The position numbers were made by a program, and so were the translations under genes. The notes under the pieces were generated by a model. The model did not search any database. It was given only the letters and a program-made list of their open reading frames with translations, and was not told where the DNA came from. Shown in pieces: positions 17,849 through 57,993 of a DNA stretch of 64,000 nucleotides (positions within the stretch are counted from its first letter, which is position 1; each line of letters starts with the position of its first letter). The DNA is from a virus: positions 64,001-128,000 of IMG/VR virus record IMGVR_UViG_3300037483_000793, one strand, 5' to 3'.

Positions 17849-17874
17849 CAACTTACTCTTGCTTTGAATAGTCT
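17845..17874 (+). promoter_or_regulatory. Class 1 promoter cassette copy
   Basis: TTGACA then ACTTACTCTTGCTTTGAATAG; TAGTCT 18 nt after TTGACA. Confidence 0.65.
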
Positions 17875-17880
17875 GGGTCT

Positions 17881-18709
17881 GTGAGACGTCAAGGGTTCAA
17901 CATGTTGGTGGAAATCATCGAGAGCATTCTGCAAGGCGCGCTGGATCATCAGCCGATGAAGGCGTCGGACCCGCCGGAGATTCAAGCACGGAAGTGGGCA
18001 GCGCAGGAGCGTGCGTACGTCGATGACCTGGGCGGTGCGACGTTCAGCTACCGCGCTGTGCCGGTCGATCCGAAGGACTGGCCGTGAAGGTTCGACTCGA
18101 AAGTGGTGAGCGGCTCGTCGTCGAAGTGCCGGTCCGGTTAGCTACTTGTGCAGCTGTATCCATCCAAGCTGAGTCGCTCCCACCCGGCTTCGCTTCGCAG
18201 CTTACTACGCATTTCTCGCAGCACCTCGTCGACGTCACGATCGAGGACGGTTTGATCGACACAGTCAACGAGCGCGTCATTCGCCGTCACGCGGAAGCGC
18301 TGCGCACCGAGGATCGCCTTGTGCTGTGGGGGCACATTATCTCGCAGCACGCGTCGTGTGTTGGGCTCGACATGACGCTCGAAGAGCTGATCAAGCTACA
18401 CGAACACGAGCACGATGGCCCGGGGACGATCCGGAATCATCCACGTACGTCGCGCGAGTACAGCCTCCACAAGATCGGTCAAGTCCTGATCGAGTCGGAT
18501 CGCTGATGTCCCGGCCGATCCGCGTTCAGCTCGACCTCGACACGTTGCCGACGATAATTCGCGAGTCCGTGCAGCAGTGCTTTGCTGTGCACCGTGTGCA
18601 GCTCGCAATCGACGGCCGCGTACTCTCGCCCGAAGAGACTGCGCGCTACATGCGCGAGATGGGTAACAACACCGCTGGAGTGATCGCGCTCCAAGAAGTC
18701 ACGTCATGA
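17881..18709 (+). other. Three hypothetical CDSs (17881-18087, 18084-18506, 18506-18709)
   Basis: Coupled ORFs. Confidence 0.55.
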
Positions 18710-29600: not shown

Positions 29601-32513
29601 GATCTGCGGCGAGCCTGCCTCGACACGTCCTGACGGCTCGGTACGCGCGCACTCGCGCTGGAAGGCTGAAGGCGTCCCACGGCTTGGTGTCGAGTCATGT
29701 CCAGGCGGGCACAAGCCGTCAACGACGTGTCCCGAGTGCGGCGTCGAGGACAGTGTCACGTGGCGGCGTGAAGAAGAGAAGTTCCCGTACGGCGCGCCGG
29801 TCGGCTACGGGGCCATCTACGGCGTCGAGCCCGAGATCGTCGAGCTGACCGCGATCGTCGATATGGGCCGCTGCGCCGTTTGCAAGTTCGAGTTCACCGA
29901 TTGGCGTGCTGAAATTGCGCGCGACGCAGCGGTGCAAGTGCACCTGAACGGAGCTGCGAAGTGAGCAACAAGTGCACCTGCGGTCAGCTCGGGCCGCTGT
30001 CACTGCGCAGCGGTGACATCTGCCTCTTCTGTGAACGGCAAGAAATCGAGAACAACTCGACCATCGGTGCGGGTGTTTCATCGAAGTCATACACGCGCGA
30101 CGTGGCGATCGCGACCATCGAGATGCAGCAGGCCCGAGGCGCGACCAGTCGTTGCCTGAAGTGTCGGCATGTGAGCGGCGACAACTGGGAGCAGTGTGAA
30201 GGCACCTGTCCGATGCCGGGCTCGCCGCACTACGACGATCTCACGGCGCACGCGTTTCAGCGAATCCCGTTGCCTCGTGAATAAGTCGAGAGTAACATGT
30301 GTCGTACAAGGGCAACGCTATGAAGTGGCTCAAGTACCAGCACAAGTTCTCGTCGGGGCGCAGCGCATGGCAGTGGAAGCGGCTTCCTGACAACGCGACT
30401 GAAAAATACGTTTGCGAAGAAGGCGTTCTCAGCGAGCTGACCGAGGAGTACAGCTTCTCCGACAAGTACAGCGGCATCGACTACGAGGTTGTTGACAAGG
30501 CCCCGCGCTGGGTAATCGAGGAGAAGATGCGCGCTGCCGCTTCACGTCGAGCTGACGCCGACGCCGATTTTCGCGAGTACGCGAACTTGATCGATGGCGC
30601 TCAATACATCACCTGTCGTCAGTGCGAAGCCGCGACGGTCGCGACCGACGAACACTACCGCACGTACTCGCACGACGGTTCGATCAAGCCGTGCCCAACC
30701 TGTGGACGCAAGGTGATCGCGGACACGATCAAGTTCTGGCTCATGCCAGATGACGAAGACGCCGTCAAACTTCTCGGCTCGCTAGTCGAGCAGGGTGCAC
30801 GCAGCGTCAAGAGCAAGAAGTTTCGTTGGCCCGTCGAAGACAAAGACGAAGAGGAGGCGTACCAGCGCCTCGGCAAGCTCGGTCTTGTCGCCGGTTCGAG
30901 CTACCAGAACGTTCACGAGATCCACGCGACGAGATCCGGCGAAGCCGAGTGGCGCAAACACAAAGGAACTGCAAAGTGAATGACAAGCTCGAACAGCTGC
31001 TCAAGCATCGCCCGTTCCGGATCTCGTTCCTGATCTCGTTCCTCGTCTGCTTCCTCGGTGTGATGAACGGCTTCGAGCGCGCGATTGTCAGCGTGCTCGT
31101 CGTCGCGCTCGGCACGCTGATCGGCTACGGTGGCGCGATGCGGTTCCGGCGCTGGCGTGGAGATTTCGACAAGTGAAGAACGCCGAGATCGTCAAGGCGC
31201 TACCGAACCTCAAGTCGCTTCAGTACGAACACGAGGCATTGAAGCGTCAGATCCAAAACCTGACGAAGCAGGAGCAGCAGCTGCAGCGCGAGATCGGCGT
31301 GCTCGGTCGCGTGACTGAAATCTTCGAAGGTGTCGCGCTGACCGTCAACGAGAAAGCCTACGCCAACGGTCCTGCACTTGACGTGCACGCTGCGGACTTC
31401 AGTCTCGCTCGGTGGGCTGACGTCTACCCGAACGCGCACAACGGCGGCAAGGACTGGGGCCTCAATATGCGCGACACCAGCGGTGCGGGCCCGGCGAGGC
31501 GCGAGAAGTGGGGTGGTACTGGCTGGCCGTTTGCCGAGGCGTGTGCCGCTGCGCGAGCGTACGTGGCTCACGGTACCGAGCCCACTGAGGCGTATATAGA
31601 AATGATCAAGCTGCGACACGCACTCGACCCCGAGCGCAAAGCGCCGAAGCGTCGCCGTGACGCGTTCGAGGCCGCGTACACAGCCGGACACGTCGAGCTG
31701 GCGAAGGAGTTGCTCGTTGGCCGTGCGAAGCTATCCGCCTTCAAGAAGACCGAACGAGAGGATGCGAGTGATGGACAACTACAAGACCAGTGACTACTGC
31801 GCGGTTTGCAACGAGTCACCCGAGTCAGGTACGCACCTGATGGGTCCGCGGCACCATGATTACGTACCGCCGACTGCTGATGACATCTGCACGTGCGGTC
31901 GGCCGCGTGGATCACAGGTACACGCATTCGATGCACCGCAAGGACACAAGTGGATGCCGGAGACGACTGTGCCTGTACCGCTCGAAGCTGCGCTGCGTGC
32001 GTCGACTACGCTGCACAACGACCCGAACATGGTCGCCATCGATGAGCGTGGCCGTGTTCTGACCGCGCCGAGCCTGATGCGCGTGATGGTCGAGGATCGT
32101 CCGGGCATGCCGCAGTTCGGTGTGCTCGTCGGCATGTTGCTCGACGAGCACGGTGACATGCAATCGGTAGTTCGGCTCGATCACTACGGCATGATGCTCA
32201 AGACGTTTCATCCGTCGAAGGTCACGCCCGTCACGCCCGAGCAGGAAGAGAACTACAAGCCGTGAGCCGTTTTCCTGTCGATCACTACTGCCTGGCGCTA
32301 CGTGACCGCGAGCGGGTGCCGCCTGGCGGTATGATTCGCGCACTCGCGAAGCGCTGTGTCTGGTTGGAGCAACGTATCGAAATCCACGCTGCACAGGGTA
32401 AAGCACACCACTTCTATACGGACGAGCTAGCAGCAATTGTCAGCCTCGTCGAGGCGCAACTGAACGTGCCGTTTTTTCAAGAGCGCTTGATAACGGAACG
32501 GAACCGGCCATGA
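26646..32513 (+). other. Run of about 12 coupled hypothetical CDSs (26646-27050, 27047-27280, 27277-27708, 27705-28700, 28697-29557, 29554-29964, 29961-30284, 30320-30979, 30976-31176 membrane, 31173-31793, 31771-32265, 32262-32513)
   Basis: Contiguous 4-nt overlaps; many CxxC motifs. Confidence 0.6.
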
Positions 32514-33037
32514 TCTGGCGCGTGCCGATCGACTTGCAGCTCGTACCGACGTCGGACCGCGATCACGTTGTCAAGCCGCACCAGACACACCTACCACTGT
32601 CGCCGCATCTTGGCGCCTTCGGCGTCAAGCGCACACACCATACACACGAAGGCGTCGATCTCTACTGCCCGTCGGGTACGTCGGTCTTCGCAGTCGAGTC
32701 CGGTACGGTCGTGCTGGTCATGCCGTTCACTGGCTCATGCGCCGATCCACCGTCGCCGTGGTGGCGCGACACCGAGGCGGTGCTCGTTGAGGGCACCAGC
32801 GGTGTCGTCGTGTACGGTGAGGTTCGCAGCAGCGTGACCGTCGGAGATCGCATCATACGCGGCGACATGATCGGCTCCGTGGTCCAGGTCTTGACCAAGG
32901 ACAAGGGCTATCCGCTATCGATGCTGCATCTCGAACTGCACGCGCACGGTACACGCAGTGCATACGACTGGAACGACGAACGGCCGCCGTCGCTTCTGGA
33001 TCCAACTCCGTTTCTCATGGCGAGCTACCTGGAGTAG
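32510..33037 (+). CDS. M23 family metallopeptidase (peptidoglycan endopeptidase fold)
   Basis: HEGVDLY (HxxxD), VFAVESGTV, VGDRIIRGDMIG, MLHLELH. Confidence 0.85.
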   Translation: MIWRVPIDLQLVPTSDRDHVVKPHQTHLPLSPHLGAFGVKRTHHTHEGVDLYCPSGTSVFAVESGTVVLVMPFTGSCADPPSPWWRDTEAVLVEGTSGVVVYGEVRSSVTVGDRIIRGDMIGSVVQVLTKDKGYPLSMLHLELHAHGTRSAYDWNDERPPSLLDPTPFLMASYLE

Positions 33038-42290: not shown

Positions 42291-43055
42291 CTAGCGGTGC
42301 TTGATCGCGAACTGCAGTGCTTCGCGGCCGAGCCTGAACGCGAGCGCCTTGCCGCTCGGGCCAAGTCGATACGGGCTCTGCGCAGCCCGCTTGGCGATGC
42401 GTAGCGCGAACCATGAAGCGGCGACGACGCCCACGACACCGAGCGCGCCGAGACCGATCTTGGCGCCCGTTGACATGCCGGTCGAGGCCATCGACGGCTG
42501 GACGCCGAGTGTCGCGAGCGCGGCAGCGATCTGTGGCGCGGCATCGCGTGCACCGTCAGCTGTGAAGTGGATCCCGTCGCCGCTCCGCTGCGCCATCTCG
42601 GTCAGCGGCCGGATGTCGAGCGTGCGGTCGATGCCGTACACGCCTCGGATCGTGTCCAGCATGAGCGGTGCAGCGGTCTCGAACTTGATGGCGTCGTACG
42701 ACGGCGGTCCGAGCGCGACAACTTCGGCGTGCGCGAGCTTGTACGCGTCACGGATTGCTTTCATGGCCGTCGCGGTCCGTGCAAGTTCGGGCGTCGTCAT
42801 GCCGCGATTGATGTCGTTGGTGCCAAGAAAGACGATGACTTTGGTCGGCTTGAACTGCGAGATGTCCGACGCGATTTGCGACAACCCGTTCTCGCCCTGA
42901 ATGAAGCTGATCGCCGAGCGGCCAACGCGCGCATTGATGTGGACGTCCTGTGCGCCAGCACCGTGCAGGAGCTGACCGAGAACGCCGCCCGGCGAGAACG
43001 CGCTCGCCGACAAGCTGTCACCGAGAATCAGAATACGCTCGCCGCGGATGTTCAT
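42291..43055 (-). CDS. SGNH/GDSL hydrolase with C-terminal membrane anchor
   Basis: ILILGDSLS, VGRS, FLGTND, DGIHF; C-terminal GLGALGVVGVVAASWFALR then basic tail. Confidence 0.85.
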   Translation of the reverse strand: MNIRGERILILGDSLSASAFSPGGVLGQLLHGAGAQDVHINARVGRSAISFIQGENGLSQIASDISQFKPTKVIVFLGTNDINRGMTTPELARTATAMKAIRDAYKLAHAEVVALGPPSYDAIKFETAAPLMLDTIRGVYGIDRTLDIRPLTEMAQRSGDGIHFTADGARDAAPQIAAALATLGVQPSMASTGMSTGAKIGLGALGVVGVVAASWFALRIAKRAAQSPYRLGPSGKALAFRLGREALQFAIKHR

Positions 43056-43993
43056 CGGCGCTTCCGCGTGTAGCCGACGAGTGGGCCGCGCGTCGCCAAG
43101 TTCTTGGCAACGTGGAGCGCGAGCCAACCCGCACCGACCAAGCCGCCAATCGCGGCAATCACCGCGAAGAACCTTTTGACGCTACTGTCAGCGTCGGCGG
43201 ATTCGGATGCCGTCGTCGAGCAGATCGGCATGTTCGGCGACCAGTTCGGAGCTGCTTCATTCGACACGGCCGCGATACCGCGCGCGAGCAGCGTCATGCC
43301 TTGTGGCGACGTCGGCTGCACGCCGTACTGGCGCATGAGAAACGTGCGGCGGTGATCGACACCCGGCAGCGGACCGACCCAGTAGTTGCCGCGCGTCGCA
43401 GTACTCTGCAGTGTCGCGGCCGGGTTGGGGTACGCGTTGCGGTTGAACAGATTAGATTGATCGTCTGCGAGCCGCGCGAAATTGTGGCTGCGGCCTGACG
43501 CGATGAGGTCTCCGAGTAGGAGCGTTAGCACGCTCGGATCGAGACGCGTCGAGGCCCAACGACGATACGGCGCCGTCGTGACACCGGTCGGTCCATGGAT
43601 CGGACCATAGAAGCCGTAGTTCGGATGGCCTACGCCCTGGTTGTAGAGCAGGACGTTGAGCACCGACTTGCCGCGGAGCTTGGCGCGGTTGACGGCCGCT
43701 TCACCGACAGCGACGCGTTCTTCGATCGTGCCGTTGCCGATCTCGGACTGCATGTAGCGGGCAAGCGTGTAGGCTTCGAGTGAGAGCTTGCCACTGAACA
43801 GTCCCGGCGCGAGCTGCTTGAGCCGCGTCTCGGCGTTCGCGCGCATGCTCTCTGGCGAGCACGCGATGTTGCCCTGGTCGTTGAGCGCACAGCCCGAGAA
43901 CACGGTGACCTGCGCGCCCCGCGCGAGCGGCGCAAGCATGGCGTGCCATGGCGGATAGCACGTCGTCGGCGTGTCCAACATCGGAGTCGCCAC
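43052..43993 (-). CDS. SleB-like (Hydrolase_2) cell-wall hydrolase with C-terminal membrane anchor
   Basis: LARYMQSEIG...ERVAVGEAAVNRA; TM FFAVIAAIGGLVGAGWLAL; tail LVGYTRKRR. Confidence 0.7.
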   Translation of the reverse strand: MATPMLDTPTTCYPPWHAMLAPLARGAQVTVFSGCALNDQGNIACSPESMRANAETRLKQLAPGLFSGKLSLEAYTLARYMQSEIGNGTIEERVAVGEAAVNRAKLRGKSVLNVLLYNQGVGHPNYGFYGPIHGPTGVTTAPYRRWASTRLDPSVLTLLLGDLIASGRSHNFARLADDQSNLFNRNAYPNPAATLQSTATRGNYWVGPLPGVDHRRTFLMRQYGVQPTSPQGMTLLARGIAAVSNEAAPNWSPNMPICSTTASESADADSSVKRFFAVIAAIGGLVGAGWLALHVAKNLATRGPLVGYTRKRR

Positions 43994-43996
43994 GGG

Positions 43997-44608
43997 CTAC
44001 CTGCTCCGGCGGTTCCGACGGCGATAGGTGCGGCCGAGCCCGTTGCGCTTGGGCTTGCCGAAGCCTTGCGCGAACGCGATGGTCGGCGTGATGACCGGAA
44101 ACACCGCACCCATGACGCCCCACCAGATGCCCCAGCCGAGACTGTCGTTGCGTTTGTAGCCGTGATAAACGCTCGCCGCAAACGAAGCAGTGCTCAGCAC
44201 GCCCCAGATGATCCGGACAGGCATCGACGGCGGTTTCAGGAAATTGGCGCGCCGCTCGAATGCGCGCATGCCCTGCTGTACGAGCAACGGATTGGCGCCA
44301 ATCGCAATCGCGCGAGCCGCGACCTCTTGACGTTCGGCGTCCGTCGAGAGGACTTCGAGAATCGCCTGAACGTCCGCAGCGAACATCGCGCTGCGGATCC
44401 GCTCCGCGAGCTTTTGCAGCTCGGCGTCGGTCAGCGCACCGAGCCCACCGAACACACCACTGTCACCGAAACCGCCCGCACCGATGCGGACGTCGCCATC
44501 GGCGGGCAGATTCCACGGGACGGGCTGGATCCCGCCGCCACCTCCGCGAACGACAAAGGTCTCGTGGCGGTGAATAGGCGAAACGGTCTCGGTACCGAGC
44601 GTCAGCAT
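43997..44608 (-). CDS. Membrane protein with YHGYKRN hairpin and GLG-Arg tail
   Basis: Two hydrophobic segments; ends NGLGRTYRRRNRRSR; TAGAAT six nt before ATG. Confidence 0.7.
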   Translation of the reverse strand: MLTLGTETVSPIHRHETFVVRGGGGGIQPVPWNLPADGDVRIGAGGFGDSGVFGGLGALTDAELQKLAERIRSAMFAADVQAILEVLSTDAERQEVAARAIAIGANPLLVQQGMRAFERRANFLKPPSMPVRIIWGVLSTASFAASVYHGYKRNDSLGWGIWWGVMGAVFPVITPTIAFAQGFGKPKRNGLGRTYRRRNRRSR

Positions 44609-44673
44609 GCATTGATTCTACACCCAAACATTCACTTGATCGCGCGAGCGATCGCGTTGTAGCGTCCGTCGCG

Positions 44674-44895
44674 ATGCCACGAGGAAAGGCCGTTGACTAC
44701 GCGCAACCGCTCACACCGTACGAGCGTTCCGACGAAGAGTACCGGCAGCTGGCGATCAGTACGAAGTTGCGAACCCTGGCTGACATGTCCGAGCGCGAGA
44801 TCCGCGCGCTGGAGCGGTACTACAAGTGCCCCGTGATCAGACCCGAGGTGCGCAACCGGCGCCGCCGGGCCCCCGGCCACGCCGTAGCAGCCTGA
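44674..44895 (+). CDS. Hypothetical protein
   Basis: TTGATC-N18-TAGCGT upstream. Confidence 0.45.
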   Translation: MPRGKAVDYAQPLTPYERSDEEYRQLAISTKLRTLADMSEREIRALERYYKCPVIRPEVRNRRRRAPGHAVAA

Positions 44896-44988
44896 CCCGG
44901 GGATCGCTCTGGGCGCCTGAAATCAGCGAATTCAAGCTGATTTGCGCTGTTTTAGGGTCCTGAAATCGCGTACTTACGAGAAAGTGCG

Positions 44989-45012
44989 CTTACTCTTGCT
45001 TTGTTTGAATAG
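44989..45012 (+). promoter_or_regulatory. Class 1 promoter cassette copy
   Basis: CTTACTCTTGCTTTGTTTGAATAG. Confidence 0.7.
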
Positions 45013-45084
45013 CTTGCTGCGTGGGTCGTCTGTAGGGCAGACTCGGTTGTTGCCAAGTCGCTCTCGACAAGGAGACGCCCCCCC

Positions 45085-45522
45085 ATGAAGCTCGCATCCG
45101 GCCCCGACGCACTCAAGTTCGCTCTGGCAGGCAACGCGCGCCTGACGCTTGTGTCCGAGCGCACCGGCACGCGGTTCACGTTCCGCATCAGGGCAAAGGC
45201 CGTCAAGAGCGGCGAGGCTCCGGCACCGCCCTGGTTCGTGTCGGTGCTGACCGGCCGCGAGAACGAGAGCGACTATACGTTCCTCGGCACGATCTTCGAG
45301 GACCGCGTCACCTACCGCCACGGCCGCAAGTCGACCGTGTCGCCCGAGGCGCCGAGCGCCAAGGGCTTCGCGTGGGCCTGGACGTTCATTGCCAAGGGCG
45401 AGCTGCCGCCGGGCTGCGAAGTCTGGCACGAGGGTCGCTGCGGTCGCTGCGGTCGCGCGCTGACCGTGCCTGAGTCGATTGCGTTGGGCATCGGGCCCGA
45501 GTGCGCGAGCGGAGGGTTCTAG
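45085..45522 (+). CDS. DUF6011-domain protein
   Basis: C-terminal RCGRCGRALTVPESIALGIGPEC. Confidence 0.8.
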   Translation: MKLASGPDALKFALAGNARLTLVSERTGTRFTFRIRAKAVKSGEAPAPPWFVSVLTGRENESDYTFLGTIFEDRVTYRHGRKSTVSPEAPSAKGFAWAWTFIAKGELPPGCEVWHEGRCGRCGRALTVPESIALGIGPECASGGF

Positions 45523-45525
45523 GTC

Positions 45526-48500
45526 ATGTTCGATCTCAATAGTCTCAAGCTCATTCGTCAGCGCTGCGTCGATCCTATGTGCTGCCAGGGCAGCGTTGAT
45601 TGCGAGCGCCCGATTCACGTGTTCACGTACCCCGGTTTCGACGGCTACGTCGAAGCGTGCAGCGAGCACGCCCGCGAGGAACTTGCGACCGCCGTCGATG
45701 AGAACGACTGGCAGATCATCGATGGCAAGCTCGTCGAGCGCACCGACAACCGCTGCCGCGACTGTGGCGTTCTCGGTGAGACGGTCGGACATCAAACCTG
45801 TGCGTACCCGCAGGAGCACCTATGACGATGTTCTACGTCGAGAAGCCTGAATCCCAGCCGCGTGCATACGAGCTGACGGACACGGTGCCCGCGCCCTCGG
45901 GCCCGTACCGTCGCTACATCACGAAGTTCGAACAGACGCCCGCATTCATCGTGCACAGCAAGATGCACGGCACGCACGAGAAGCCGCAGCCGTATGTCGT
46001 GCGTGGCGTATCCAAGCGCGGAGAGCTGCTCGTGCAGGCGACGGTCGAGACCAAGTACGAGCCGATCGGCCGTTGGCTCGAAGTCGAGTGCGGCGACACG
46101 CAGGAAGGCTACCGGTTCAAGCGCCGCCTGCTCAAGCCGATCGCGACGCTGATCAAGATCGCGGCCGATGCCGCCAAGGCGAACGCGCGTGTGCAGAAGC
46201 AGCAGGCGCATCAGGCGGACCGCGACGAAAAGTGCGGCGAGTGCCCGGCCTGCTTCGGTGACTACGTCGTGGTGCCGACCAATGCAGCGCGGCTCAAGTT
46301 GAGCAACGCGGCGCAGTACAAGATGGTTCATCACGGCTACGAGCGGCCTGGTGACGGCATGATTCACGGTGATTGCTACGGCGTTGGTTACGCGCCGTTC
46401 GAGGTCTCGTGCGAAGGCACCAAGTTCTACCGTGGCATCGTGCAGAACTCACTGCAGATGCGTCAGGACGTACTGACGGCGCTGCCAATGTTGGAGACGG
46501 TCAAGGTCGAGGACGGCTCCAAGTTCGTCGGCGGGCGGTTCTGGCCCGTGTACAAGGAAATCAAGCGTGGCGAGTACGGGTTCGACGCCGAAATCGCGTT
46601 GCGCCGTCGGAAGCTCGAAAGCCAAATCGATTCGGCCAGGCATCACCTCGCCGAGCTGAACAAGAAGATCGCGAACTGGAAGCCGCAGCCGTTTCCACGA
46701 CCGATCAAGAAAGGCAAAACGTCGTGACCAAGACCAAGCGTCGTGTTTCCCGTGAACAGCGTCTGCGCGACGACGTTGCGTATGCCGCCTCATGTCTCAA
46801 AGAGGCAGGTGACCCACTTCATCACCTCGGCCCGAGCGGGCAGTACGAGGACGCGTTCCAGCGCTACAGCAAAGCGATGCATGCACTGCTCGCGTTCGAC
46901 TGTCCACTCGGGATCGAGGAGTGGACGTGGGACGGCTATGCCGGGACATTCCACTTCAAGTGGGTGTTCGGTGCGCAGGCGCGCGAGCTGGGATCCGCCA
47001 AGGCGTACGAGACCCGATACATCAACATGACGTCGCACGGGCGCCTCGACGATTCCAAGCTGATCGACGAGGAGCTGGTGCGCCTCCGCGCCGAAGCTGT
47101 GTATCTCGACGAGATGCGCAGGGCCTTGACGCGTTGGTCACACGATCACGTGAAGGGCGCCGCCAAATGAAGTGGACCAAGGTCCGTGCGGGCCTGTACC
47201 GCAGCGGCAAGTACGAGCTGCGTCAGGCACGGTGGCGCGCGTCCAACGACGGTTGGATGATCACGACCGACGACGAATCGTTCCATGACTCGGCGCGGCT
47301 TCTGGTCAAAGCAAAGCGCCGTTGCGAGACGCACGCTGCAGACGAGATCAAGAAGGAAGAGCAGCGTCTCGGTCCCGATTTCGGGACGCGCCTGTTCAAT
47401 GCGCATGCGAAGGTAGCCGCGACCGCGCCAAAAACAACGGAGCCGGTGATCCCGAAGGTCGATTTGCTCAATGCATCGGCGCAGCTGTTCTGCGAGACGT
47501 TGTTCCTGGCATCGAAGATCGGTGTCACGGACGCGATGCAAAAGGTCACGCGAGACGATCACGCGCTCGCGACATTGCTCTGCAAGCCGAAGTGCTACCG
47601 CTACGAACACGTGCGCATGCTTCACGAAGCATACGAGGCGGGCCAAACGTTCATGGAGCTGCAAGGTCAACCGACGAACATGAAGTGGGACAAGTCATGA
47701 GCGACTCCAGACGCATCACCAACGAGACGAAGTCGATCCGTTCGGTTGAGAAGGGATCGCGCCTCACGCGCGAGTGCCGTTCGCAGCGCTTGTACTGGCG
47801 CGGTGTGCTGTTCTCGTTCGCGACAAAGCACCACGGTCACGACTACTTCATCGCCGAGATCGATTGCCTCGGAAGGATCATGTGATGGGAAAAAACCGCG
47901 TCAACATCAAGGCAATTCTTCGCGACCCTGCACAGTGCCGCGAGCTGATGATCGATACGATCATCGCAACACAAGCACGCGAAGGCATCACGACCACGCG
48001 CAAGCAAGCTGCGGCTGCATGGGACAAGGTGCAGATAGAGAAGGCGCAGTACTCACTCAAGCAGCGCTTGGACGTTTCACCACAGCGGCCGTTGCCCGTT
48101 CCGCCTGGGTATCGTGACATCGCCACCGCGTTCGGCGAAGCCGAGTTGGAAGAGCCTGTGATGCGCGAGATCTTGGAGCGGTACCACTTCACCAAGCGCG
48201 AACGCAGGGCGCTCGTGAAGGCGATTGTCGCGGGCTACCTCGAAGGTTGGGTTCGCGCCAACTGCGAGCGCGATGATCTGGCCAATCCCATCCTGATGAT
48301 CAGCGCGCCATAGGAGCTGACCATGAACGACACCACACGCGAACACCTGATGAATCACCGGCACACGAAGAACGACGGCTCGGAGTGGGCATACGACGCG
48401 CAGGGCATCGAGTTGTGCCGCGTGTGTCCCGAGTGCCGCGACGTCAAGCTGTCGCAGTACCGGCCGGAGATCCTGACCGGTTACGACCAGCACGACGTCA

Positions 48501-48756
48501 ACGAACCCATCGAACCCGAACCGGAGTAGCCATGTCACACCAACCGCCGGGATACCCGACCAAGGCCGAGCGTGATGCCGCGCTTCAGGCGCTGAAACAA
48601 ATTCGCGACCACGGCGAGAAGATTTTGATCAACTCGATGCACAGCCAACGTGCACGCAACCTGCTGGTGACACTCTCGACGTGCATCGAGGTTCTGCGAC
48701 GCGATCCGGACATGTACTTCAAGGCGGTGATGGTCGAGATCGAAGGCGAGCCATGA
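45526..48756 (+). other. Run of hypothetical CDSs (45526-45825, 45822-46727, 46724-47170, 47167-47700, 47697-47885, 47885-48313, 48323-48529, 48532-48756)
   Basis: Coupled ORFs; 45822 has CPAC..HHGYERPG..C.G phage motif. Confidence 0.6.
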
Positions 48757-49187
48757 CACGTAAGCCAGAGCGCGGCAGCGCCAAAGACAAACTCGAAACG
48801 GTCAAGCAGTGCAAGTCATGTCCTTGGCGTGTCGACTGCGTGCCTGAGAAAGACATCCCGAACGGCTACTGCGCGAACATGCACGCTGAGCTGCACGGCA
48901 CGATCAAAAGTGGTCTGGAGTCGTTGCCGCGACCGGGCGGCGTCATCCGTGCGATGGCGTGCCACTACAGCAAACCCGGCGAGGAGTTCGTCTGCGCTGG
49001 TTGGTTGGAGAATCAGCTCGGGCCTGGCAACAACATCGCGGCGCGTCTCAAGGTTATGACAGGCGCGTGGCCGGTGCCCGAGATCGACGGCGAGCAACAC
49101 GAGCGCTTCGAGGACACGCTGCCCAAAACTAGCACTCGGGCGCCCAAGCGAACGCGACGGCCCCGACAGCCGCGCCGGTCGCGGTGA
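48753..49187 (+). CDS. DUF6283-like Cys/His protein
   Basis: QCKSCPWR...MACH...VCAGWL. Confidence 0.6.
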   Translation: MTRKPERGSAKDKLETVKQCKSCPWRVDCVPEKDIPNGYCANMHAELHGTIKSGLESLPRPGGVIRAMACHYSKPGEEFVCAGWLENQLGPGNNIAARLKVMTGAWPVPEIDGEQHERFEDTLPKTSTRAPKRTRRPRQPRRSR

Positions 49188-49380
49188 TGCCGACGGCGGT
49201 CGCCAGACCGTCCGAAATCGGTTCGCCGGGCGCCGATCGTGCGAGCCGCCGCAGGGACACGGTCGTGCCCACCACCAGGCCCAAAACGCCACCTACGAGA
49301 CCACCCATGAGCGCCCCAGCTGTGCCGCGGGCGACGCGCGAGCTGCGACTACAGTGCGCGCTGAGCTGACGACGGCGCAT
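49129..49380 (-). CDS. Gly-zipper helical-hairpin membrane protein ending PEC
   Basis: Paralogous to the C-half of 49381-49860. Confidence 0.65.
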   Translation of the reverse strand: MRRRQLSAHCSRSSRVARGTAGALMGGLVGGVLGLVVGTTVSLRRLARSAPGEPISDGLATAVGITATGAAVGAVAFAWAPEC

Positions 49381-49860
49381 CTAGCACTCCGGCTTGGCGG
49401 CGCCGATAGCGAGGCCGCTGACAGCGCCCAGGACCGCGATACCGGACCCGATGAGCATCCAGTGCTTGTAGCGGGCGATGCTAGCGATGGGTTCCGTGAT
49501 GTCGGCCTGCGTGGTCGCGACGGCGACAGCTAGGCCGCCGCCAATCATGCTGCCGATCACGCCGCCGATCAGGGCGCCGAGCCCGCCACGAACGACGCGG
49601 GACGTGTTCGAGCAGGAAGAACTGCCCAGATTCTTGCGATTCCGCACACCATCGAAGTGAATCTTCGCGAGCTTCTTGTAGTAGTTTTTGTCTTCGCACA
49701 GGTGATCGAGCGCGATCTGTTGCGCGATCTTGTGATCGGTGGTGTGTTCCAGCTCGACCGCGGTACCTCGATGTAGCTGCGCAGCGTCGAAGTCCTTTGT
49801 GTGGCATCCGTGACGGCGGGCGTAACCGTTAGGTAGACGGACAGATCGTGCGGGCGTCAT
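49381..49860 (-). CDS. DUF5661-like domain fused to Gly-zipper membrane hairpin ending PEC
   Basis: GTAVELEHT.D...A.QIALDHL.E...YY.KL; two TM segments. Confidence 0.7.
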   Translation of the reverse strand: MTPARSVRLPNGYARRHGCHTKDFDAAQLHRGTAVELEHTTDHKIAQQIALDHLCEDKNYYKKLAKIHFDGVRNRKNLGSSSCSNTSRVVRGGLGALIGGVIGSMIGGGLAVAVATTQADITEPIASIARYKHWMLIGSGIAVLGAVSGLAIGAAKPEC

Positions 49861-49895
49861 GCGCTCGACGATACCATGATCGCGTGCGCGATCGA

Positions 49896-50114
49896 CTAGA
49901 GGGCGTCGGCGGTCGGCAGGCCGAGACCGCGCCGCATAACGTCACGCGCCGCCGACGAGATGTTGGGCTTGCGCTCGTCGTCCCGGCGGATGCCTTCGAG
50001 CTTGCGCGCGTAGGCTTCGAGGCGGTCGTGCAGTGTATCGTCGACGACAACGTGCAGATGACGAACGTGATCGCTGGCGCGACTGGTGGACCGCTTGGGA
50101 CGTTTTGGCTTCAC
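49896..50114 (-). CDS. Ribbon-helix-helix DNA-binding protein
   Basis: HLHVVVDDTLHDRLEAYA...NISSAARDVMRRGL; TATGAT seven nt before GTG. Confidence 0.6.
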   Translation of the reverse strand: MKPKRPKRSTSRASDHVRHLHVVVDDTLHDRLEAYARKLEGIRRDDERKPNISSAARDVMRRGLGLPTADAL

Positions 50115-50147
50115 GCGTGACATCATACTCGCGCTTTGCGCGCGAGG

Positions 50148-50879
50148 CTAGTGTCGCTTGAGCAGGACCGCTGTGACCAGGCCGAGCACGACTGCGCTGC
50201 CAGTCGCAGCAGCGATCACGATCTTCGTCTTGCGTGACATCGGGGGCTTCGAGACGGCAATCGGCCTTGGCGCAACCGGCGTCACGTCGCCCGACTTGAG
50301 CGCGGTGATCATGTTCTCGATCGCCGCTTTGACGTCGTCGAGTGTCCCGAGCGTCGCGATCGCGATCGTCGGGTCCATCATGCGCGCGTTGTTGATGCGC
50401 GCGGTTACGTCGCTGTTGGGGACCTGTGCCGCGACCGTGCCACCTGCTGCGGCAGTTGCCTGCTGCAGCAGCGCCATCGTCCCGCCGTGGACGACCCACA
50501 ACCGGTTGTTGAAGTCGCTGTACGCGCCGGTCGAAGTGCCGACGTCGAACACGACATCAAAGCTGTGGAACGTGGTCACCATCCCAAGGAAGCGCTCGAA
50601 CACCGCGATCGCATCCTCGGCAGACATGCCTGCAGCACCGAATCCGGGCTGCATGTACATGTTCGGATCGTACATGTAGTGGTACCGCGACGTCTCCGCG
50701 TCGGGGTAGTGCTTGCCGATCACGCCCGAGTAGATGCGGCTCTGATCATAGCGCGCCGCGTGCACGGGAAACTCGGCGGCGTAGAAGTCGGGGAAGCCGT
50801 AGCGGTACGGACCCTTTCCCCACTTCGTGACCAGCTCGTTGGCGCTCTCGCCGAAGGCGCCGTAGTGCGCGATCAGCAC
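50148..50879 (-). CDS. Tail-anchored membrane protein with AFG leader (putative virion)
   Basis: MLIAHYGAFG; C-terminal TM IVIAAATGSAVVLGLVTAVLL-KRH. Confidence 0.65.
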   Translation of the reverse strand: MLIAHYGAFGESANELVTKWGKGPYRYGFPDFYAAEFPVHAARYDQSRIYSGVIGKHYPDAETSRYHYMYDPNMYMQPGFGAAGMSAEDAIAVFERFLGMVTTFHSFDVVFDVGTSTGAYSDFNNRLWVVHGGTMALLQQATAAAGGTVAAQVPNSDVTARINNARMMDPTIAIATLGTLDDVKAAIENMITALKSGDVTPVAPRPIAVSKPPMSRKTKIVIAAATGSAVVLGLVTAVLLKRH

Positions 50880-50882
50880 GGG

Positions 50883-51755
50883 TTACCGGCTCCGCGAACG
50901 GCGCCGACCGAGTGCGGGCGACGTGTAGAGGAAGCCGGGCTTGTGCTTGCCCGCCGCGACCGCACCGACGGTGGTGAGGCCGACCATCGCAGCGGCGCCC
51001 ATGACGATTGGCGCCCACTTGCTGCGCTGTTCGCCTGCCTTGGGCACGACGAACGGAATCGTCGAGACGTCGAGCTGCGTCTGGATCGGAACGTTGCCGC
51101 GCTCGTTGAATTGCGACAACAGCGCCGGGAAGTGATCAGCGACGTCGTTGAGGTAGTCGGCGATCTCCGTCGAATACTTGGCGTAGATGTCCGTGCGTGT
51201 CGGCGACACGAATGCGAGGGCGATGCCCGGGTTCGGGAACTTCTTGAGCATGCCCGCGAGTGTCAGCGCGAGTACCGTGAACTGCATCGTCGAAGCACCG
51301 ACCACACCGTCGTAGCCGCTCTGCGCGCCAACTGGGCTCATGAGGTTCGAGGGCACCGTGAAGATCTGCTCGGATGTCGATCCGTCGCCGGACGGCATCT
51401 GACCTTTCATCTGCCGCCCCGCGAGACCGTTGGTCGGGATGAGGTCGATCACGCGGTCGGCAGCGCGCTGCATGTTGCGAATCGGTGCCTTGCCGCTCTC
51501 GCCAGCCTTGTTGAGCACACACTGCGGACGGTTCGCGTTGTCCTTGGTGCAGTACACGAGCCCGTCATCGGACTTGTACGTGGTGCCCGCACCAGCTGCC
51601 TGGAACACGGAAAAGTCCGATACTGCTGCGCCAAAACCGTAGCCGGTGTTGACCCCGCCGCGCATGCGGGCACGGTCCTGCGCGACCTGGATAAGAACAA
51701 GCGCGGAGGGCGCTTGCGACTGCCCAAATCCGTTGCCGTAGGAGCTGACGATCAT
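50883..51755 (-). CDS. Tail-anchored protein with GFG leader and PG-binding-like DGVVG..T motif
   Basis: MIVSSYGNGFG; YDGVVGAST; TM; tail ALGRRRSRSR. Confidence 0.6.
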   Translation of the reverse strand: MIVSSYGNGFGQSQAPSALVLIQVAQDRARMRGGVNTGYGFGAAVSDFSVFQAAGAGTTYKSDDGLVYCTKDNANRPQCVLNKAGESGKAPIRNMQRAADRVIDLIPTNGLAGRQMKGQMPSGDGSTSEQIFTVPSNLMSPVGAQSGYDGVVGASTMQFTVLALTLAGMLKKFPNPGIALAFVSPTRTDIYAKYSTEIADYLNDVADHFPALLSQFNERGNVPIQTQLDVSTIPFVVPKAGEQRSKWAPIVMGAAAMVGLTTVGAVAAGKHKPGFLYTSPALGRRRSRSR

Positions 51756-51795
51756 GTGGTTAGCCTACCACAGAAGCGATCCCAGCAGCGATCGA

Positions 51796-52500
51796 CTACC
51801 GGCGCCGACGACGGCGCGCGAGGTTCGACTTCGACTTCGCTTTCTTGGGCGCGGGCTCACGCAGCACGGCATAACCGACGGCACCGACGACGACGACACC
51901 GGCAACGCCAGCGGTGACCCAGACCCACGTCGGGACCTTGCCCGATGTCGCGATCGGCATGAGCGACGCCGCGGCTGGGTTTGCGCCCGGCATCATGGTG
52001 GGCTGGATCGCTGCGGTCGTCGTTCCTCGTGGCGCCGTCACCATCAGCGACGGTGAAAGCGAAACCGACGTAGGCGGCGTGACGACGGCAATCGGCGTGC
52101 TGGACGGAACCGGCGTCGGCGTCGAGGTCGCAACAGGGAACTGCGATCGCGGCGCGGTCACACCGCCGAGAAACGCTTGCAGCCCGTCCTGAAGGATCTG
52201 TGCGTTCGATGCGATTGCCTCCTTCGTCGAGCCCGGTGACGCGAGCAGCGCTGCCGCCGCGGCCGCGCGTGCGGCCGTGACTGTCTGCGCCCCGATGAAG
52301 CCGTCGACGGTGAGCTGCCCCGTGTACGCAGACAGCCCGAGCTTGGCGTACTGGTTCAGCGTGCCCTGCAGCTGCTGAAGCAGCGCGTGGTTTGCTGCGC
52401 CGATCGCGTAGCAGATGCTGCTGTTGCAGTTGAAGTCGGTGCCTTGCGAGAGCACGCGAGCGGCGCCAAACGCGCCACTGATCGTTGTCGTGAACAGCAC
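51796..52500 (-). CDS. Peptidoglycan-binding-domain protein, Pro/Thr linker, C-terminal TM
   Basis: LTVDGFIGAQTVTA; FNCNSSICYA; tail NLARRRRRR. Confidence 0.75.
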   Translation of the reverse strand: MLFTTTISGAFGAARVLSQGTDFNCNSSICYAIGAANHALLQQLQGTLNQYAKLGLSAYTGQLTVDGFIGAQTVTAARAAAAAALLASPGSTKEAIASNAQILQDGLQAFLGGVTAPRSQFPVATSTPTPVPSSTPIAVVTPPTSVSLSPSLMVTAPRGTTTAAIQPTMMPGANPAAASLMPIATSGKVPTWVWVTAGVAGVVVVGAVGYAVLREPAPKKAKSKSNLARRRRRR

Positions 52501-52503
52501 GGG

Positions 52504-53082
52504 CTAACCCCGTGCCTTGCGACGGTAGACGACGTAGCCGACGCCGCCGACACCGAGCACGGCCACGACGCCGCCAAGGATCCACCACAGCGTCTTGGAC
52601 TTGACCTTCGGCAGCGCCGCGGCAGCAGGTGACATGCCCGGGATCTGCACAGGTCCGATCGTGGTCGTCTGGTGCACGACTGGCGGCGGCTGGTACGCGA
52701 CAGCAGTACCGGACGGCGACGGCCGCATGCCTCCAGCCTGTTGTACGACGGCGAGGTTCTGAAGCAGGTCGATCAGCATGCCCGCGTTTGCGGCGACGGC
52801 TTCTTTCGTCGATGGCGCCGTCGCGAGACCCAGCCTCTTGATCGCTTGCAGCGCCGTTACCGTAGCGGCGCCGATGAAGCCATCGACGGTGAGCGGCTTG
52901 AAGCCTGCAGCACCGGAGAAGACGTTCGTCTTCATCTGCAGCTGCTTGAACAACGCGTCGTTCGTCGGGCCGATCGCGTAGCAGATGGCGTTGTTGCAGT
53001 TGAAGTCCTTGCCCTGTGTCAGCCCGGCGGCGCTGAAGCCGTAGCCGAAGCCGTTACCGCCGCTGTGAGCCTGAATAAGCAT
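52504..53082 (-). CDS. Peptidoglycan-binding-domain protein (paralog of 51796-52500), C-terminal TM
   Basis: LTVDGFIGAATVTA; FNCNNAICYA; GGAG RBS before ATG 53082. Confidence 0.75.
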   Translation of the reverse strand: MLIQAHSGGNGFGYGFSAAGLTQGKDFNCNNAICYAIGPTNDALFKQLQMKTNVFSGAAGFKPLTVDGFIGAATVTALQAIKRLGLATAPSTKEAVAANAGMLIDLLQNLAVVQQAGGMRPSPSGTAVAYQPPPVVHQTTTIGPVQIPGMSPAAAALPKVKSKTLWWILGGVVAVLGVGGVGYVVYRRKARG

Positions 53083-53207
53083 GGATTCTCCTGTCCAAAC
53101 ATGTATCACGCGAGGTCCGGGACGGGCAACGATCGCGCACGCGATCGGCCTGCCAAACGCCTGTCAGGCCCTCCGAAACCTCGATCGCGTCGGCGATCCA
53201 GAGTAGG

Positions 53208-53540
53208 ATGAACGTCAACGTCGTGAACCCCGCCGCCAACGCCCGCACCATCGTCGTGCTGTTCACGATCCCCGGATGTGAAGCGTGCGCGGAGTACAAG
53301 CCGCGCTTTCAGCGCATCGCGCAGCAGTATCAAAACGTCGTGCCCATCTACATGCTCAACGCTAACGACACGCGACCGGACGTCGCGGACCTTGCAAGTC
53401 GTTTGCATGTTGCGAACGTACCTGCGACGTTCGTGTTGCGGCGACCGACCGGCGTGATCCGCGTCGAAGGTGCTATCCCTGATTCTCAAATCGCGTGGCT
53501 GCTTGGTGTCGCTGCGCGCGAAGTGTCGAACCCTTACTAG
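53208..53540 (+). CDS. Thioredoxin-fold protein without signal peptide
   Basis: FTIPGCEAC (CxxC) and VANVPATF cis-Pro loop. Confidence 0.85.
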   Translation: MNVNVVNPAANARTIVVLFTIPGCEACAEYKPRFQRIAQQYQNVVPIYMLNANDTRPDVADLASRLHVANVPATFVLRRPTGVIRVEGAIPDSQIAWLLGVAAREVSNPY

Positions 53541-53553
53541 GAGAGAAACGAGA

Positions 53554-53898
53554 ATGATGTACGCAAACCTTCGCGACGCCAGTGGCAACATGGTCGGCTC
53601 CGTCGCAGTCGATCCCACGCAGGCAGGTGGCCTGCAAGGCGCTCTCAGCGACGCGATGCAGAAGCTGCAGCACGCGCAAGGCCAAGGCGTGCCGCACCAG
53701 GCACGTCCACTGCCGCCCGGTTACCTACCGCCGGGTGCGGGCCAGTCACAGCCGTACTCGCAGTCGCGGCCGTTTGTCTGCCAGATGCGTTACCAGACGC
53801 GCGCGCCGAACGGCCAGGTCGTGTGGGCGACGCAGTCGATCACGTGCCCGCCGGGGATGCCGCCGGGCATCTACATCCACTCGCCCGGCCACCGCTAG
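53554..53898 (+). CDS. Gln/Pro-rich hypothetical protein with 2 Cys
   Basis: GGAG RBS; follows thioredoxin. Confidence 0.6.
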   Translation: MMYANLRDASGNMVGSVAVDPTQAGGLQGALSDAMQKLQHAQGQGVPHQARPLPPGYLPPGAGQSQPYSQSRPFVCQMRYQTRAPNGQVVWATQSITCPPGMPPGIYIHSPGHR

Positions 53899-54434
53899 TT
53901 CTTGGCGGTGGCGGCGGTTCCGCTGCGCGTGTCGGGGAACTTCTTCGACGCGTAGTGGATCGTGGTGTAAAACGTCGCGCACGTGATGACGTCGATCGCG
54001 ACCATCGTTGCGATCGGCCACGACAGCGGCAACGTGGTGGTCAAGTACACCGGCACGTAGATCGCGCGTGTGATCATCACGCAGATGGCGAGGCTGATCG
54101 GGTTACCGCGCGCACGCCACGAGCGGAAGAACCGTAGCAGAACGGGGATCCAGGCCAGAGCGACGACGAGCGTCGCGATGGGTACAGCTTCCTGGTTCAC
54201 GTTGGTTCACGACTTGACGTGCAGGCCAGCGCCGTTGAGGGTGTGCTTGAGGTCGGTGCTGGCCCGACCGAAGCGTTGTACGTGACGCCGCTGGGCGACT
54301 TCAGCCGCCGCGTGGATCTGTTGATCCACTTCGGCTGCAGCGTGCCTGACGGTGCGCCGTGTGCGCCGCTGCCACAGTCCGAGACCGACGACGAGCACGA
54401 TGAAGATCAGAACCGATGTTACGAAGGACCACAT
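53895..54434 (-). other. Two small membrane proteins (53895-54200 multi-TM; 54207-54434 single N-terminal TM)
   Basis: Hydrophobic segments; adjacent to holin-like gene. Confidence 0.55.
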
Positions 54435-57456: not shown

Positions 57457-57993
57457 TTAGCGGACCTCGCTCGGGGGGCCGATGATGTCGAGGTAACCCT
57501 GGAAGTTGACCTCGATGCGCACGAACTGCACGTCGACGCGCTCGGGCTCGATGTTGGCGTCAAGGATCACGACCGCCGGGTAATCCTGCGTGTCGATCTG
57601 CACCTGGAAGCCCTCGCTGCGGACGATCGTGTAGGGCTCTTCGAGATCCCACGCGCCTGTGTTCTTCTGCAGCAGCTGGCTGACGAGCGTTGCGCTCTTG
57701 GTCAGGTTCTCGTTCTTCGCGAAATCGAGGATGCGCATACGCACCCGCTTCTCCAGCGTGGTCGGTTGCGGTTCGAGCACCGTTGGCGTTGAAAAGCCGT
57801 CGGGCGTGCCCTTGGCCGTCAGGCCGATCCGGACGCGGTGGATCTCGAACGGCTTGTCGACGTTGTGGAGAAACGACGCTTCGGGGAACACGACGCCCGA
57901 CAGGTTCGGACCGACGTCCAGCTCTGCGGCGACGTTGTACGGAATGCGAAACGTGATGTCCTTGCCCGCAAAAGCTACTGGCAGACGGCCCAT
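57457..57993 (-). CDS. Putative single-jelly-roll capsid-like protein
   Basis: 178 aa, all-beta pattern (FEIHRVRI, VRMRILD, LEEPYTIV..EGFQVQIDT, IEVNFQGY); GAGGAG RBS; heads a structural operon. Confidence 0.45.
   Translation of the reverse strand: MGRLPVAFAGKDITFRIPYNVAAELDVGPNLSGVVFPEASFLHNVDKPFEIHRVRIGLTAKGTPDGFSTPTVLEPQPTTLEKRVRMRILDFAKNENLTKSATLVSQLLQKNTGAWDLEEPYTIVRSEGFQVQIDTQDYPAVVILDANIEPERVDVQFVRIEVNFQGYLDIIGPPSEVR

Follow-up and report, generated by a model that had tools for sequence, protein, structure and literature searches.

Signal-less, C-terminally anchored proteins with putative wall-active folds cluster in the 196-kb genome of an uncultured phage

The known membrane-containing phages are small (10-20 kb, of the tectivirus and PM2 types) and have one or two membrane-bound wall enzymes, which in PRD1 and Bam35 are of the SLT/GH23 type. 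In PRD1, the membrane proteins enter the host membrane and a patch of it is pinched off inward (PMC6356626). A membrane-associated transglycosylase is attributed to the same phage (P7; Rydman and Bamford 2000, as cited in PMC13552765), and P26 of Bam35 is a transmembrane transglycosylase without a signal peptide (PMC8539640). P3 of PM2 and GP18 of NO16 carry an N-terminal domain lying under the capsid and a C-terminal transmembrane (TM) segment (PMC13552765). Here we analyse a 64,000-nucleotide stretch (the window; positions 64001-128000 of IMG/VR record IMGVR_UViG_3300037483_000793) of an uncultured phage genome, in which the interval 42291-53109 encodes a module of signal-less, C-terminally anchored proteins that include an SGNH esterase and a putative SleB-fold wall hydrolase. 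We believe, with about even chances of being right, that the anchored proteins are structural proteins of a lipid membrane that a large tailless phage has beneath its protein shell and that they would aid in crossing the wall. Unless given as genome positions, coordinates refer to the window.

The whole record comprises 195,792 bp (62.4% G+C). Its bases 1-178 recur exactly at 195615-195792, so that it assembles as a circle, which suggests that the genome is circular or terminally redundant, and complete; the source record is classed as linear despite this terminal repeat, and CheckV gives a completeness of 90%. Host assignments through bins of metagenome-assembled genomes conflict with one another (Polyangiales, Bdellovibrionales, Tessaracoccus and Actinomycetes). 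The DNA of the region had no nucleotide match in the phage collection, and no account of this virus group turned up in a search of the literature.

A clustered module of anchored, signal-less proteins

The interval 42291-53109 holds ten minus-strand genes in two operons. Operon A runs from 44608 to 42291 and encodes a 203-amino-acid (aa) protein, a 313-aa protein and a 278-aa open reading frame (ORF), and operon B runs from 53109 to 49129 and encodes proteins of 201, 234, 290, 243, 76, 159 and 83 aa. Seven of the ten have a soluble N-terminal domain, a C-terminal membrane anchor and no N-terminal hydrophobic signal, which confirms the build that a first-pass annotation of this DNA had described. 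By hydropathy, the anchor is a single C-terminal TM segment in six of these proteins and two weaker hydrophobic segments in the 203-aa protein; in the six, the segment lies within about the last 50 residues and is accompanied by no N-terminal signal or other TM segment, as expected of tail-anchored proteins. The tails beyond it are 5-36 residues long and carry 2-11 lysines and arginines (9 in 42291-43127, 6 in 43052-43993, 2 in 50148-50879, 7 in 50883-51755, 11 in 51796-52500 and 4 in 52504-53109). The same hydropathy analysis revealed a hydrophobic N-terminus in none of the anchored proteins of the interval, nor in the 159-aa and 83-aa proteins.

This build is concentrated in the module. With a crude gene call based on G+C at the third codon position, which yielded about 290 ORFs genome-wide, some 13 displayed a soluble N-terminal domain plus a C-terminal anchor, and seven of them fell within 10.8 kb, or 5.5% of the genome (binomial 2e-6, a descriptive value only, since the genes of an operon are not independent). 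The remaining ones form two groups, at genome 25.9-31.9 kb and 141.3-146.6 kb. The latter (genome 141317-146575; L005:13317-16197 and 17617-18575) encodes anchored proteins of 630, 323, 174 and 170 aa, for which no family matches were found.

The build is also conserved among relatives, the C-terminal TM segment being retained in 30 of 30 members of the 313-aa family, 21 of 24 of the 234-aa family and 21 of 21 of the 290-aa family. A signal-like N-terminus, whether of the Sec, Tat or lipoprotein type, is absent from all 75 sequences. The C-terminal flank of the TM segment shows a positive charge bias in the 313-aa (SleB-like) and 234-aa (peptidoglycan-binding-like) families, and the TM segment and Arg tail are kept among the relatives of the 243-aa protein, a small family of 21 representative clusters. 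The genes of the interval, with a divergent thioredoxin gene, are the following:

42291-43055, minus: SGNH/GDSL esterase with C-terminal TM segment and basic tail (Pfam PF13472, hydropathy; ORF open to 43127, 278 aa)
43052-43993, minus: SleB-fold wall hydrolase (putative lytic transglycosylase) with C-terminal TM segment and basic tail (AlphaFold model, structural search; 313 aa)
43997-44608, minus: 203-aa protein heading operon A, with soluble N-terminal part, two weak hydrophobic segments and Arg-rich tail (hydropathy)
49129-49380, minus: 83-aa protein with two glycine-zipper-like TM segments (hydropathy; weak Gly-zipper/Romo1 Pfam matches)
49381-49860, minus: 159-aa protein with DUF5661 N-terminal domain and two TM segments (Pfam PF18905, 40.1 bits; hydropathy)
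49896-50126, minus: 76-aa basic soluble protein of operon B (ORF list, hydropathy)
50148-50879, minus: 243-aa tail-anchored protein with N-terminal leader and no assigned fold (hydropathy)
50883-51755, minus: 290-aa tail-anchored protein with NGFG leader, two invariant Cys, TM segment and conserved tail (family alignment, model)
51796-52500, minus: 234-aa tail-anchored protein with leader, Cys-pair domain, Pro/Thr/Ser linker, TM segment and basic tail (family alignment, sub-threshold PG_binding_3)
52504-53082, minus: paralog of the 234-aa protein with short basic tail (ATG at 53082, about 192 aa; ORF open to 53109, 201 aa)
53208-53540, plus: thioredoxin-fold protein (CxxC), divergent to the module (Pfam PF00085, 31.7 bits, above the cut-off)

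No family match was obtained for the 203-aa protein in Pfam, PHROGs and NCBIfam, or for the 76-aa protein in Pfam and PHROGs. The 159-aa and 83-aa proteins have two glycine-rich TM segments each and both end in Pro-Glu-Cys, and the C-terminal half of the former looks like a paralog of the latter; the pair could be channel-forming or membrane-remodelling proteins. Homologs of the 159-aa protein occur in two related loci (L011 and L015). The plus-strand block at 44674-49187, between the two operons, encodes DUF6011 and DUF6283 proteins and is unrelated to the module. As a separate observation, the 16-bp palindrome GATCGC-N4-GCGATC was found in 25 copies in the window (at most one mismatch; 1.3 expected), at 44638, 49878, 51778, 53131, 53183 and 20 further positions, with copies occupying the gaps that border and split operons A and B.

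Folds, leaders and tails of the anchored proteins

The 313-aa product had been called SleB-like, and this is supported at the level of the fold but not by sequence models. An AlphaFold model built from 30 relatives (predicted local distance difference test, pLDDT, 87.9) matched the SleB catalytic domain in a structural search with VIA-align (4fet_A, Z 9.0, root-mean-square deviation 3.2, 114 of 122 residues), followed by a second SleB entry (4f55_A, Z 8.6); the rows that came next had Z values of 4.5 or lower and covered the TM helix only. On the other hand, the Pfam model of this fold (PF07486, Hydrolase_2) gave no match at E<=10 in the six frames of the genome and none by hmmscan at E<=0.1, the protein had no match in Pfam, PHROGs or NCBIfam, a profile search against PDB sequences disclosed nothing relevant, and Foldseek found no match for the model in the PDB, so that the exhaustive structural search alone recovered SleB. 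Glu66, in a YxxSE helix, is invariant in the 30 aligned sequences, which also have four conserved Cys. On the basis of the model, we consider the protein a putative lytic transglycosylase of SleB fold. Its relatives number more than 239 (44-79% identity; 45-79% over the 120 that were listed), occur on contigs of up to 275 kb and all lack Pfam domains; the gene belongs to the core of the virus group and is widespread in it. In the public gene call (295 aa), the start is placed 18 codons too far downstream, which omits 43939-43993 and thereby an N-terminal Cys-x-Pro-x-Trp-His motif that is present in the 313-aa ORF and conserved among relatives.

The neighbouring SGNH esterase is well founded, as the ORF scores above the cut-off with two Pfam models (PF13472 Lipase_GDSL_2, 40.5 bits against 32.9; PF00657, 36.2 against 23.6) and all four catalytic blocks (GDS, G, GxND and DxxH) are legible in the translation of 42291-43055. 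Its TM segment lies at about residues 224-242 of the long ORF and precedes a basic tail of 36 residues. Translation probably starts with the ATG at 43055, which forms an ATGA overlap with the stop of the upstream SleB-like gene, an arrangement by which the two genes are predicted to be translationally coupled. A 35%-identical homolog in a distant relative (L014) has the same four blocks and the same anchored build and adjoins the SleB-like gene there. Among named families, the esterase comes closest to TesA/lysophospholipase L1 (NCBIfam NF007819, with an E of 4e-06, far under the cut-off of that model). That such an enzyme could remove O-acetyl groups from peptidoglycan or polysaccharide ahead of a lytic transglycosylase, as had been proposed, is reasonable logic.

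The 234-aa and 201-aa paralogs, previously regarded as two clear peptidoglycan binders, are better described as probable ones, the likeness being at motif level and limited to a sub-threshold PG_binding_3 match over about 20 residues. The query's own matches reached 14.4 and 13.7 bits (cut-off, 24.6) and covered about 20 of the 76 profile positions; similar sub-threshold matches occurred in 19 of 24 family members, with a best E of 0.01. A family profile run against the PDB pointed weakly (E about 1) to the PG_binding_3 entries 6v3z and 6v40, and the Atlas cluster with a score of 0.76 contains PG_binding_1 in 34% of its members, which is a weak lead. Both paralogs share the leader, a domain of about 120 aa with two invariant Cys and a DGxxGxxT-type motif, the Pro/Thr/Ser linker, the TM segment and a basic tail, and tblastn with the N-terminal domain found no match in the phage collection.

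For the 290-aa protein, the model had a pLDDT of 68, with values of 80-96 in the confident core (residues 91-235). This core matched no solved or viral fold: the best Z obtained with the model was 3.5, and neither BFVD nor Atlas yielded anything. A few entries with peptidoglycan-binding domains (5anz, 9h68 and 6tci) came up at Z 2.3-2.9, which is within the noise. No related IMG/VR loci were found with this single protein as query. In the family alignment, its conserved 30-residue tail ends in ALGR-RR, and hhalign aligned the peptidoglycan-binding-like and 290-aa families over the TM segment and tail only, their N-terminal domains not being detectably related.

An additional anchored enzyme is encoded outside the window, in the group at genome 25.9-31.9 kb. 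The protein of 372 aa at genome 30808-31926 (L002:10808-11926, plus strand) combines a Peptidase_C39 domain (Pfam, 50.9 bits) with a C-terminal TM segment and a basic tail, and a related locus (L009) has a copy of it at its edge with 61% identity. The protein could be a further anchored enzyme that acts on the envelope or, alternatively, a candidate for the protease that would cut the Gly-rich leaders described below.

We examined the neighbourhood of the SleB-like gene in 11 IMG/VR contigs of 49-150 kb. A peptidoglycan-binding-like gene adjoins it in six of the 11 loci, often together with further genes for proteins with a C-terminal TM segment (L012, L016 and L018), and a homolog of a 178-aa protein (57457-57993) lies 4-10 kb away in six. 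The SGNH gene adjoins it in one (L014). A thioredoxin homolog was located at a distance of 2-9 kb in eight loci. Since the anchored proteins carry invariant cysteines, it is possible that the thioredoxin acts on them in a disulfide system run by the phage; an equally possible role is to reduce the ribonucleotide reductase of the phage. Cytoplasmic disulfide systems exist in poxviruses and giant viruses.

Two short motifs recur among these proteins. In the four consecutive anchored proteins of operon B, the initial Met is followed by two hydrophobic residues and, after a few variable positions, by Gly-x-Phe-Gly. The same leader opens two anchored proteins (323 and 170 aa) at genome 143-146 kb, to give six proteins in total; the SleB-like, SGNH and C39 proteins have no such leader. 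It is conserved in the peptidoglycan-binding-like and 290-aa families and disordered in the 290-aa model. At the other end, both families share a tail motif (Pro...Ala-Leu-Gly/Ala-Arg-Arg) after the TM segment, and Leu-Gly/Ala-Arg-Arg recurs in the 203-aa protein (LGR..RR), in close relatives of the SleB-like protein and in a soluble 146-aa protein (ALGRRRR). The NCBIfam models of sorting signals (LPXTG, GVDTG and LAVTG) gave sub-threshold rows only.

Basic tails are not a peculiarity of the anchored proteins. Polybasic C-termini, defined as at least five lysines or arginines in the last 12 residues, occur in 22 of 290 ORFs (7.6%), about five times the 1.6% of internal sequence windows, and many of these ORFs have no TM segment (examples of polybasic ends are genome 67658-68098, 23120-23595 and 139043-139549). 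Because such ends appear genome-wide and on soluble proteins, the tails may not set topology, and may instead serve in DNA binding or particle targeting. A bolder proposal, which we regard as quite doubtful, is that the N-terminal leader plus the C-terminal helix with its Leu-Gly/Ala-Arg-Arg-Arg tail form a two-part address that marks at least six and perhaps 13 particle proteins, the leader being docked in the shell or cut by the C39 protein, a peptidase of the double-glycine type, the Arg tails holding the 196-kb DNA through the membrane, and the cysteines being handled by the phage thioredoxin; an address of this kind would not have been described before.

Virion membrane, orientation and competing explanations

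Terminase, portal and HK97 capsid genes, which had been named as the findings that would speak against a virion membrane, were looked for in six frames, and none was found. The models TerL_ATPase, Terminase_6N, Terminase_3, TerL_nuclease, Phage_capsid (HK97), Gp23 and Phage_portal gave no match at E<=1 in this 90%-complete genome, and control genomes respond to the same terminase, capsid and portal models. No member of the terminase, portal or capsid families was present among the 30 largest proteins either (Pfam or PHROGs), which are replication and nucleotide-metabolism enzymes, vWA proteins and unknowns, and Capsid_NCLDV had no match in the genome.

One of the vWA proteins (789 aa; L005:2533-4902, minus) hits phrog_2426 with an E of 4e-170, and a conserved protein of Ackermannviridae (phages of Dickeya, Klebsiella and Salmonella) shares 33-34% identity with it; the gene is one that tailed phages also have. 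We rejected it as a clue to the particle, as it is linked only to accessory genes of Ackermannviridae.

The idea of an unusually large entry toolkit on an internal virion membrane stands in part: it is favoured by the lack of tailed-phage hallmark families, by the precedents for signal-less muralytic TM proteins in internal-membrane phages, whose combination of muralytic domain and TM segment without signal peptide is found again here, and by the coupled SGNH/SleB pair kept in L014, whereas the topological paradox attached to it was overstated. The paradox was that the positive-inside rule places the basic tails in the cytoplasm while the N-terminal domains have no export signal. The rule does count against cytoplasmic N-terminal domains, but GP18 of NO16 has the same predicted orientation and is nevertheless on the inner capsid face (PMC13552765).

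We propose the following sequence of events. Each protein, as the absence of an N-terminal hydrophobic segment indicates, would be made in the cytoplasm without a signal peptide, and its C-terminal helix would hold it in the viral membrane. By inward pinching of the PRD1 type, the cytoplasmic face becomes the capsid-facing one, and the N-terminal domain would be on that side, as in P3 of PM2. The placing of the N-terminal domains between shell and membrane and of the tails at the DNA agrees with the fact that soluble proteins have such tails too, with the conservation of the tail motif and with the predicted orientation of NO16 GP18. The particle would open at the cell surface with exposure or remodelling of the membrane, whereupon the SGNH esterase and the SleB-fold enzyme could open the wall for DNA delivery, aided by the two peptidoglycan-binding-like proteins and probably by the C39 protein. 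For the Arg-rich tails, the most likely roles would be contact with the packaged DNA or signalling for incorporation into the particle, and the Gly-Phe-Gly leader is a candidate peptide for docking to the capsid or for processing.

Several observations weigh against this explanation. With a cytoplasmic N-terminal domain, as many as 11 positive charges would have to pass through the host membrane, a passage disfavoured by the positive-inside rule, and the conserved Cys pairs of the N-terminal domains suggest an oxidising, periplasm-derived side. In gene order, a 203-aa membrane protein ahead of a wall hydrolase is reminiscent of holin and endolysin. Moreover, peptidoglycan binding by both paralogs is weakly supported, and no packaging ATPase of the FtsK/HerA type was found in the genome with PF01580 (FtsK_SpoIIIE).

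A lysis role for operon A is a serious rival, although we judge it unlikely. According to this alternative, the 203-aa protein is a holin, the SleB-fold and SGNH proteins are tethered endolysins that reach the wall once the membrane is breached, and operon B provides accessory envelope disruption. The tightly coupled order of membrane protein, wall hydrolase and esterase agrees with it, as do the several small multi-TM proteins nearby (49129-49860 and 53895-54434, by hydropathy) and the fact that profile searches of the genome found no T4-type lysozyme, GH19, Amidase_2 or M15 (M15_4) endolysin. However, neither the size nor the layout of the 203-aa protein, with its 130-aa soluble N-terminal part and C-terminal hydrophobic segments, is that of a holin, and the hydrolase is anchored C-terminally rather than being soluble or anchored at its N-terminus; to our knowledge, which does not come from an exhaustive search, no endolysin has a C-terminal TM anchor and a cytoplasmic catalytic domain. 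The SleB-like gene is also unusually conserved, and other enzymes are available that could serve in lysis, namely an SLT-domain protein (genome 27542-28300; L002:7542-8300, minus; 23.2 bits, just over the cut-off) that is weakly hydrophobic close to its probable N-terminus, and a soluble peptidase of the M23 family (32510-33037, plus; 36.5 bits, above the cut-off).

It is rather improbable that the same virion membrane holds the proteins in the mirror orientation, with the tails cytoplasmic and then capsid-facing, and with the N-terminal domains exported by an unrecognised route into a DNA-side lumen, from which a PM2-type fusion with the outer membrane would deliver them to the periplasm, where they would face the wall. 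Such a fusion model has been described for PM2 (PMC6356626, PMC13552765). The positive bias of the C-terminal flank in the SleB-like and peptidoglycan-binding-like families is as this orientation predicts, the invariant Cys pairs or quartets of the N-terminal domains fit an oxidising compartment, and the leader shared by six of the anchored proteins could direct export in an unconventional way. Yet the SleB-like, SGNH and C39 proteins do without that leader, no Sec-, Tat- or lipoprotein-like N-terminus exists in any of the 75 family members, no known C-terminal sorting domain scored over its cut-off, and the C-anchored proteins of PM2 and NO16 place their N-terminal domains on the capsid side (PMC13552765).

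Finally, we find it highly improbable that these are non-virion membrane proteins of the infected cell (organisers of assembly sites, lipid-remodelling proteins with the SGNH enzyme as a lysophospholipase type, or superinfection exclusion proteins on the cytoplasmic face), because even though bacterial tail-anchored proteins normally face the cytoplasm and the closest named SGNH relative is TesA/lysophospholipase L1 (far under cut-off), a SleB-type hydrolase and peptidoglycan-binding-like domains have no substrate there.

Significance and comparison with known systems

A 196-kb genome from a widespread uncultured group devotes at least 12 signal-less, C-anchored proteins to the envelope, among them a family of putative wall hydrolases that no sequence model recognises. 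If they reside on an internal membrane, they would constitute a concrete list of parts with which a very large tailless phage crosses the bacterial wall, and a testable case in which strongly basic tails are reconciled with tail-anchored topology in bacteria. The leader and tail motifs are, in addition, simple sequence handles for spotting particle proteins in related metagenomic viruses.

The proteins resemble P7 of PRD1 and P26 of Bam35/GIL01 in combining a muralytic domain and a TM segment without a signal peptide; those enzymes reside in the internal membrane of the virion and act during entry, as we propose for the proteins here. They differ in that the fold is of the SleB type (the Pfam SLT model matches a different gene), that the genome is about 13 times larger, and that at least three anchored enzymes and at least eight other anchored proteins are encoded. 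Like the minor capsid proteins P3 and P6 of PM2 and GP18 of NO16, they are signal-less with a C-terminal TM segment, and the predicted out-to-in orientation is that of NO16 GP18 (PMC13552765). Unlike these non-enzymatic proteins of 80-130 aa, to which they have no sequence similarity, they possess N-terminal domains of 120-270 aa and long Arg-rich tails.

The SleB-fold protein shares the catalytic-domain fold of SleB/CwlJ (Pfam Hydrolase_2; PDB 4FET and 4F55) at 14-15% identity, and an invariant Glu lies in its first conserved helix; in contrast to SleB/CwlJ, it has no N-terminal PG_binding_1 domain or signal peptide and has extra Cys-rich N- and C-terminal extensions and a TM anchor. Its SGNH partner has the catalytic set of the O-acetyl-peptidoglycan esterases of the Ape1/PatB type and is coupled to an enzyme of lytic-transglycosylase fold, but its best named relative is TesA-like and it is tail-anchored rather than secreted. 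The C-terminal regions recall LPXTG, PEP-CTERM and MYXO-CTERM signals in having a hydrophobic helix followed by an Arg-rich extreme C-terminus. They depart from sortase and exosortase signals, systems that require an N-terminal signal peptide, in that they have neither such a peptide nor a signature motif (LPXTG_anchor, 13.3 bits against a cut-off of 15.9, in the C39 protein only). The kind of protein is known, and what is new here is the scale, the TM-anchored SleB-fold family, the coupled SGNH partner, the anchored C39 protein and the shared leader and tail motifs.

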